In this document: one piece after another, positions 1-416 of the stretch | How the letters are laid out: each line of letters starts with the position of its first letter | Position numbering within the stretch: position 1 is the first letter of the stretch | Assembly (NCBI RefSeq): GCF_003334815.1 | Contig: NZ_QOWO01000130.1 | Source of the DNA: Escherichia coli | GTDB taxonomy: Bacteria > Pseudomonadota > Gammaproteobacteria > Enterobacterales > Enterobacteriaceae | Direction: 5' to 3' (one strand) | DNA length: 416 bases | Notes under the pieces: model-generated | Told to the model about the DNA's origin: nothing | Databases searched by the model: none | The model's input: only the letters and a program-made list of their open reading frames with translations | Position numbers and translations under genes: made by a program

Positions 1-416
1 GAAACCGGCTTTGACGGCCGCACACAGCGTTATCACCACGACCTGACCGGCAAACTTATCCGCAGCGAGGATGAGGGTCTGGTCACCCACTGGCACTATG
101 ACGAAGCAGACCGCCTCACGCACCGCACCGTGAAGGGTGAAACCGCAGAGCGGTGGCAGTATGACGAACGTGGCTGGCTGACAGACATCAGCCATATCAG
201 CGAAGGGCACCGGGTGGCGGTGCATTACAGGTATGATGAGAAAGGCCGGCTGACCGGTGAGCGTCAGACGGTGCATCACCCGCAGACGGAAGCACTGCTC
301 TGGCAGCATGAGACCAGACATGCGTACAACGCGCAGGGGCTGGCGAACCGCTGTATACCGGACAGCCTGCCCGCCGTGGAATGGCTGACCTACGGCAGCG
401 GTTACCTGGCAGGCAT
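1..416 (+). CDS. rhs: Rhs-family YD-repeat protein, internal fragment of the conserved core (partial at both ends)
   Basis: Frame +1 is open across all 138 codons. Frames +2 and +3 hit stops early (TGA at 41-43; TGA at 12-14), and two of the three reverse frames contain stops. The translation has repeated YD-type motifs at a spacing of about 21-31 residues: RYHHDLTGKLI (nt 28-60), WHYDEADRLT (91-120), WQYDERGWLT (154-183), YRYDEKGRLT (226-255), and degenerate HAYNAQGL (319-342) and LTYGSGYL (385-408). From memory the peptide closely resembles the E. coli-type Rhs core (rhsA/B/C-like), but the paralog cannot be assigned from this core-only fragment, so the symbol is given at family level. There is no Met codon in frame, consistent with an internal fragment. 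Confidence 0.93.

Follow-up and report, generated by a model that had tools for sequence, protein, structure and literature searches.

The rhs genes of Escherichia coli owe their name to unequal crossover of rhsA with rhsB, a recA-dependent event that duplicates glyS (PMC2935791), and rhsB-rhsA amplifications of 139-147 kb recur in evolution experiments (PMC4340650, PMC3588905, PMC9769844). At the same time, it has been stated that no natural chromosomal rearrangement via rhs is reported, and that the hot-spot phenotype is an artefact of selection (PMC2935791). The closest described systems to the DNA analysed here, a stretch of 416 nucleotides which we refer to as the window, are rhsA and rhsB of E. 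coli K-12, placed in the rhsABCF subfamily by Hill and co-workers (per PMC2935791). Both are the same as the window at 416 of 416 nt, with the same frame, YD repeats and high G+C, and we found no difference between them and the window. The window belongs to the conserved, G+C-rich core of 3.7 kb that is common to the rhsA/rhsB/rhsC family. It is with great confidence that we hold the overall account developed below, in which a piece of conserved core forms part of a passive repeat, acts as a recombination substrate, is homogenised between copies and leaves short reads unplaceable. The consequences of this account, being recombination, homogenisation and read ambiguity, are partly demonstrated and partly deduced. 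Both the identity of the window and the caution that it may be multi-copy are already known, textbook E. coli biology.

The premise that the window is Rhs core, on which the sequence-only reading was built, is confirmed by its open frame 1, by matches to NF041261, to TIGR01643 and (twice) to Pfam RHS_repeat, and by its high G+C. The features of the window are as follows.

1..416, + strand: internal fragment of the Rhs core ORF in frame 1, with no start or stop inside; 100% match to rhsA and rhsB.
40..138, + strand: YD/RHS repeat unit, aa 14-46 (Pfam PF05593, i-E 3.9e-05; TIGR01643, aa 13-50).
96..254, + strand: three degenerate 24-nt direct repeats (96-119, 159-182 and 231-254; repeat search, family D1).
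160..264, + strand: YD/RHS repeat unit, aa 54-88 (Pfam PF05593 RHS_repeat, i-E 3.9e-04).
188..416, + strand: part of the window kept in the 5'-truncated rhsE pseudogene (blastn, 81.7% identity, rhsE locus 10732-10960).
217..293, + strand: paralog hypervariable patch; 21 of the 31 mismatches to rhsC fall within it, and the 12 amino-acid differences are mostly in or near it.

In a six-frame translation, frame 1 of the + strand is open across all 138 codons, and the remaining two + frames are interrupted by stops. An overlapping gene was sought in the other frames and on the opposite strand, where ORFs reach 43 aa at most, and this candidate was dropped. The window peptide aligns with positions 675-812 of the 1261-position NCBIfam model RHS_core (NF041261), with an E-value of 6.6e-84. 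Its score of 282.6 bits is what is expected for a fragment; the full-length RhsB that contains it reaches 2643.8 bits against a cutoff of 2000. The YD-repeat model TIGR01643 and two matches of Pfam PF05593 fall within the same peptide. The three degenerate 24-mers, which are the only internal DNA repeats in the window, lie 63 and 72 nt apart, are 67-75% identical to the reference copy and encode YDEADRL, YDERGWL and YDEKGRL. They reflect, at the DNA level, the ‘YDxxGRL’ motif that recurs from one YD repeat to the next. On both strands, Rfam returned nothing above threshold, and an RNA element was rejected, the best match being snoRNA-like with 16.3 bits versus a gathering score of 40. The G+C content of the window is 59-65%, richer than the 50.8% of the chromosome of the K-12 strain J53 (PMC5968721).

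In both rhsA and rhsB of K-12, the window corresponds to CDS nt 1999-2414 or codons 667-804 (6001-6416 of the extracted rhsB locus, 8104-8519 of the extracted rhsA locus), and it encodes residues 667-804 of a 1,411-aa protein, among the central YD repeats of the core. YD repeats of Rhs proteins form an encapsulating shell around a toxin, and the window is, to judge from the profile matches, a YD-repeat piece from the middle of such a polymorphic-toxin core. Further downstream, residues 1170-1247 of RhsB make up an Rhs_assc_core domain, after which comes the divergent tip. The likeness of rhsA to rhsB ends at CDS 3713, beyond which the C-terminal tips diverge, and each core is followed by a small gene, in K-12 yhhH, yibA and ybfB at the rhsB, rhsA and rhsC loci, respectively. 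The yibF-linked (rhsA) locus of numerous wild strains has a tip of the rhsB type with yhhH, followed by yibA (e.g. NZ_CP010125.1, 4,417,080-4,423,627). Finding the same tip at different loci in different strains is as predicted by the C-terminal displacement model of PMC2935791.

We compared the five Rhs loci within one K-12 MG1655 chromosome, NZ_CP025268.1. The window is 100% identical to both rhsA and rhsB, 92.5% identical to rhsC (31 mismatches, gap-free) and 79.8% identical to rhsD; the rhsE remnant, annotated in the record as ‘missing N-terminus’, starts at window nt 188 and keeps 229 nt. Over their cores, rhsA and rhsB are 99.2% identical, differing at 30 positions in 3,713 nt, with rhsC at 96.8% in the same comparison. 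Within the window, RhsB and RhsC differ by 12 amino-acid changes. In the 77-nt patch at 217-293, rhsA/B and rhsC are ~27% divergent, against ~3% core-wide, and no other part of the window could tell rhsC-type reads from those of the rhsA/B type. With rhsD as the reference, rhsA/B stands apart at 9 sites of the patch and rhsC at 10, a count that rules out rhsA/B as the sole odd lineage. Since both lineages have diverged from rhsD about equally, the patch is locally fast-evolving, rather than a single conversion patch.

The exact identity of rhsA and rhsB extends well beyond the window. In MG1655, they share an exact block of 1,214 nt (CDS 1894-3107) that holds the window, and an adjacent one of 1,811 nt; in J53, one exact block of 3,386 nt (CDS 82-3467) holds it. 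In MG1655, one must go 106 nt 5' or 694 nt 3' from the window to reach the nearest site that discriminates rhsA from rhsB; in J53, these distances are 1,918 and 1,054 nt. As rhsA equals rhsB over the window and more than 1 kb around it, no single locus can be named for the window. The copies have unrelated flanks: over the 400 nt before rhsB and rhsA, identity is 27.5%, i.e. random, and in K-12 rhsB is next to nik genes, rhsA to yibF/selA and rhsC to kdp/ybfA. We also observed that rhsA and rhsC share ~115 nt (93% identical) directly before the ATG, at about 5989-6103 of the extracted rhsA locus and about 3515-3629 of that of rhsC, where the rhsB upstream region is unrelated; their repeat therefore reaches slightly past the ORF.

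What does this arrangement allow for in terms of recombination? The five K-12 rhs copies are all located on the same strand, with the starts of rhsB and rhsA 144,226 bp apart. Therefore, crossover between them gives duplications or deletions, not inversions, and an Rhs-mediated inversion needs one of the copies to have been flipped beforehand, which is the case in J53. Direct rhsB and rhsA cores 144 kb apart would give rise to the classic rhsB-rhsA tandem duplication, while cores that have been turned into inverted repeats would invert the interval between them. Consequently, the claim that these cores mediate duplications and inversions, and owe their name to both, stands for the documented duplications and recA-dependent crossover but not for inversions as the origin of the name, which comes from the duplications. 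Long identical tracts at different loci, as a recombination hot spot would have, are present, with 1,214 and 1,811 nt in MG1655 and 3,386 nt in J53. Recombinant junctions inside the repeat are likewise found, in 15 J53-lineage records and in ET82, taken from the assembled records as they stand. Among the best matches to a query joining rhsA and rhsB, there was no complete genome with a tandem rhsB-rhsA duplication.

This query was built from the rhsA upstream flank, the shared core, and the rhsB tip with its downstream flank, and it was searched in complete genomes. The joint yibF-core-rhsB tip-yhhH was present at full length in 15 complete genomes of the J53 lineage of K-12, and the reciprocal joint nikR-core-rhsA tip-yibA in the same 15 of 15. 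A query with the parental order nikR-rhsB-yhhH confirmed the parental junction in K-12 strains. In NZ_CP034595.1, one of the J53-subline genomes, the recombinant rhs genes are located at 4,058,041-4,062,276 and 117,414-121,547. The 139-kb rhsB-rhsA interval of MG1655 is now found within yjgL in this genome, flanked by two copies of IS5, and with a recombinant rhs gene mid-way in the relocated interval. For the published J53 genome (CP028702), a hybrid assembly with long reads far beyond 3.4 kb, the only rearrangement reported is an 825,667-bp inversion between two IS5 copies (PMC5968721). This parental J53 (NZ_CP028702.1) has parental Rhs junctions, with rhsA on the - strand and rhsB on the + strand, and thus as inverted repeats. 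The two genes of the subline are base-for-base the products of one reciprocal crossover within the 3,386-nt block; given the sequences of J53 rhsA and rhsB, a non-reciprocal origin, with a conversion tract at the crossover, was rejected. In the simplest history, the IS5 inversion would first have made rhsA and rhsB inverted repeats, after which an rhsA x rhsB crossover would have inverted an arc of 741,673 bp with dnaA and oriC on it. The same product would also come from excision and subsequent reintegration by way of IS5. In J53, the Rhs exchange is combined with an IS5 x IS5 inversion.

A second case comes from ET82, a sediment isolate outside K-12 (NZ_CP101005.1), which carries both swapped joints with the genes on opposite strands (313,622-317,857 and 131,597-138,297). 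Here, the second break is an IS5-family (ISKpn26) element that joins yhiJ' to glpD. This differs from the second break in J53, and the event is therefore independent. FDAARGOS_1249 (NZ_CP069459.1), likewise not a K-12 strain, also has the two joints, one per strand (2.70 and 3.32 Mb), and may be a third case of the exchange.

We must however take into account that the joints in the J53 lineage and ET82 could have arisen in the assembler, by mis-pairing of the paths through a 3.4-kb inverted exact repeat, in which case the inversion is apparent only. Resolving an inverted repeat pair in the other way changes the sequence by precisely this kind of inversion, the 3,386 nt of exact identity are longer than the span of short reads and many short inserts, and the original hybrid assembly of J53 has the parental joints. 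Conversely, all 15 of 15 subline records show the same isomer, where random error should give a mixture, and at least the parental J53 record made use of reads far longer than 3.4 kb (PMC5968721). Furthermore, ET82 displays the same kind of exchange with other IS5-family breakpoints. Taken together, we regard mis-resolution as unlikely, though still a serious contender. The reading to which we incline, with some reserve, is that Rhs cores do mediate real, large rearrangements without deliberate selection, as exemplified by the 742-kb oriC inversion in a widely used stock of J53 and the exchange in ET82, and along with these by the rhsA/rhsB conversion in K-12 laboratory lineages that is discussed below. 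Neither the J53/ET82 exchange nor this conversion was found described in the searchable literature. If the exchanges are real, they would run against the statement on rhs rearrangements in PMC2935791, and J53 stocks would differ by a 742-kb inversion spanning the origin, confusing reference-based analysis of transconjugants. Regardless, be it a real crossover or a mis-resolved repeat, either supports the caution that the region is multi-copy.

Compared with MG1655 rhsA (6106-10239 in the extracted locus), J53 rhsA (5415-9548) shows the rhsB allele at 8 diagnostic sites in a row, CDS 1893-3231. As a result of these rhsB alleles, the exact repeat around the window grows from 1.2 to 3.4 kb. At CDS 954, both J53 copies have a C and both MG1655 copies an A. 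The pattern resembles the outcome of gene conversion from core to core in laboratory lineages of K-12, a process through which rhs copies would homogenise one another. The alternative explanation of the pattern is polishing artefacts of the J53 record.

For assembly, the concern had been that the context of this copy is ambiguous. In MG1655 this is borne out by the identity of rhsA and rhsB over the window and the 1,214-nt block, with discriminating sites no nearer than 106 nt 5' and 694 nt 3', and no ordinary short read or pair that starts in the window can place it; on the sequence alone, one confined to the identical block fits two loci equally well. With reads or pairs shorter than the identical block, short-read assemblies would break, collapse or join arbitrarily. 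Searching metagenome contigs with an exact 35-mer from window nt 337-371 gave at least 120 contigs. Among the matches listed, the whole window is present in 118 contigs, of which 26 are identical to it, 12 show 99 to <100% identity and 77 show 95-99%. For the 113 contigs analysed at full length, again among the matches listed, the median length is 6.4 kb. The proposed check of whether contigs end within the core turned out mixed: among the matches listed, at least one contig end is located inside the core in 21 of these 113, a count made without a single-copy control, and the other 92 span it, with a median of only ~1.2 kb of flank at either end, so that assemblers often do get through the core. 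Past the core of K-12, another repeated sequence follows after 0.8-1.5 kb, in the form of an orphan core fragment, a yibA-like pseudogene or ISEc1. Flanks of ~1.2 kb fit with breaks caused by repeats, and, there being no single-copy control, low coverage explains them equally well.

Scanning the contigs of species-representative genomes with a degenerate 21-mer returned four contigs, none of them from Enterobacteriaceae genomes, and two of the four being chance or distant matches of 22-35 nt. The remaining two are core fragments in metagenome-assembled genomes (MAGs). JAETOQ010000140.1, from an Oscillospiraceae MAG, is a 2,726-nt contig of 62.8% G+C that consists entirely of rhsA/B-type core (98.6% identical, CDS 85-2810), such that both its ends are inside the core, and JALHET010000378.1, from a Lentisphaerae MAG, is an rhsD-like fragment with 95.6% identity. 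Both have an end near core CDS 2810-2822, ~115 nt past the start of the K-12 orphan fragment (CDS 2695). They are probably mis-binned fragments of the G+C-rich repeat. Short core contigs are G+C-richer than the remainder of the E. coli chromosome and can be binned into unrelated MAGs. Only with long reads or unique flanks can the window be tied to a single locus, which is of importance for variant calls, copy number, toxin/immunity pairing and synteny.

Across 5,426 complete E. coli genomes, megablast found the segment in 3,882, at 12,732 places in total, and it is missing from the other 28%. Carrier genomes hold a median of 3 places, with a minimum of 1 and a maximum of 7. From the matching records we took a sample of 60, evenly spaced down the ranking, in which 56 had two places or more. 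This, together with the 99.2% and 96.8% identities of the K-12 cores, agrees with the claim of several near-identical, multi-kilobase copies. The other four (~7%), e.g. BLR(DE3), PE164 and JX21CE8, had a single place. It had been proposed that the multi-copy inference would fail if no other genomic hit exceeded about 90% identity over the segment. K-12-type genomes do contain such hits (rhsA and rhsB at 100%, rhsC at 92.5%), although their absence could hold for the ~7% of carriers with one place. Could the segment then be single-copy in its own genome, and this copy hence be free of collapse and recombination risk? The four single-place records and the lowest per-genome count of 1 leave room for this, but the window is 100% identical to K-12-type genomes, all listed records at 100% identity have two or three places, and in K-12 two of the places are exact. 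We therefore consider a single copy very improbable.

That the segment is multi-copy as part of a self-mobile element, i.e. an insertion sequence or transposon, can practically be dismissed: ISAs1-family (H-repeat) transposase genes do occur ~1.5-3 kb downstream of some cores, and the ‘Rhs element’ was historically viewed as an accessory element, but the window and whole RhsB match only RHS_core, YD-repeat and Rhs_assc_core models and no transposase, the copies keep the same chromosomal loci across thousands of genomes, all but three of the 12,732 places (12,729) are chromosomal, and rhs are treated as ordinary genes in PMC2935791. An insertion sequence or transposon is recognised by a transposase and variable sites, and this combination was not found for the window or RhsB. 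The core DNA is rather a passive dispersed repeat, with copies at fixed chromosomal loci beside unrelated genes.

How, then, does the Rhs core compare with known systems? At the level of the protein, the nearest solved relatives of RhsB by sequence are Tse5 of Pseudomonas aeruginosa (8cp6) and the Rhs family protein 7q97, both of which are T6SS Rhs effectors. RhsB aligns with these two and with the Salmonella bongori Rhs core (8qjd) over the YD-repeat region, with E-values of 3e-127 to 3e-55. The alignment with Tse5 covers RhsB residues 286-916, the window included, a likeness by sequence only. No T6SS genes are annotated beside the five K-12 rhs loci, and E. coli K-12 is not known to have a T6SS. 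At the level of the DNA, rrn operons and IS elements are likewise dispersed, kilobase-scale identical repeats that, in a RecA-dependent manner, lead to duplications when direct and to inversions when inverted, and they break short-read assemblies as well. The Rhs core differs from both in being a protein-coding toxin scaffold rather than a mobile element or an RNA operon, and its copies are fewer, the median for this subfamily being 3 per genome.
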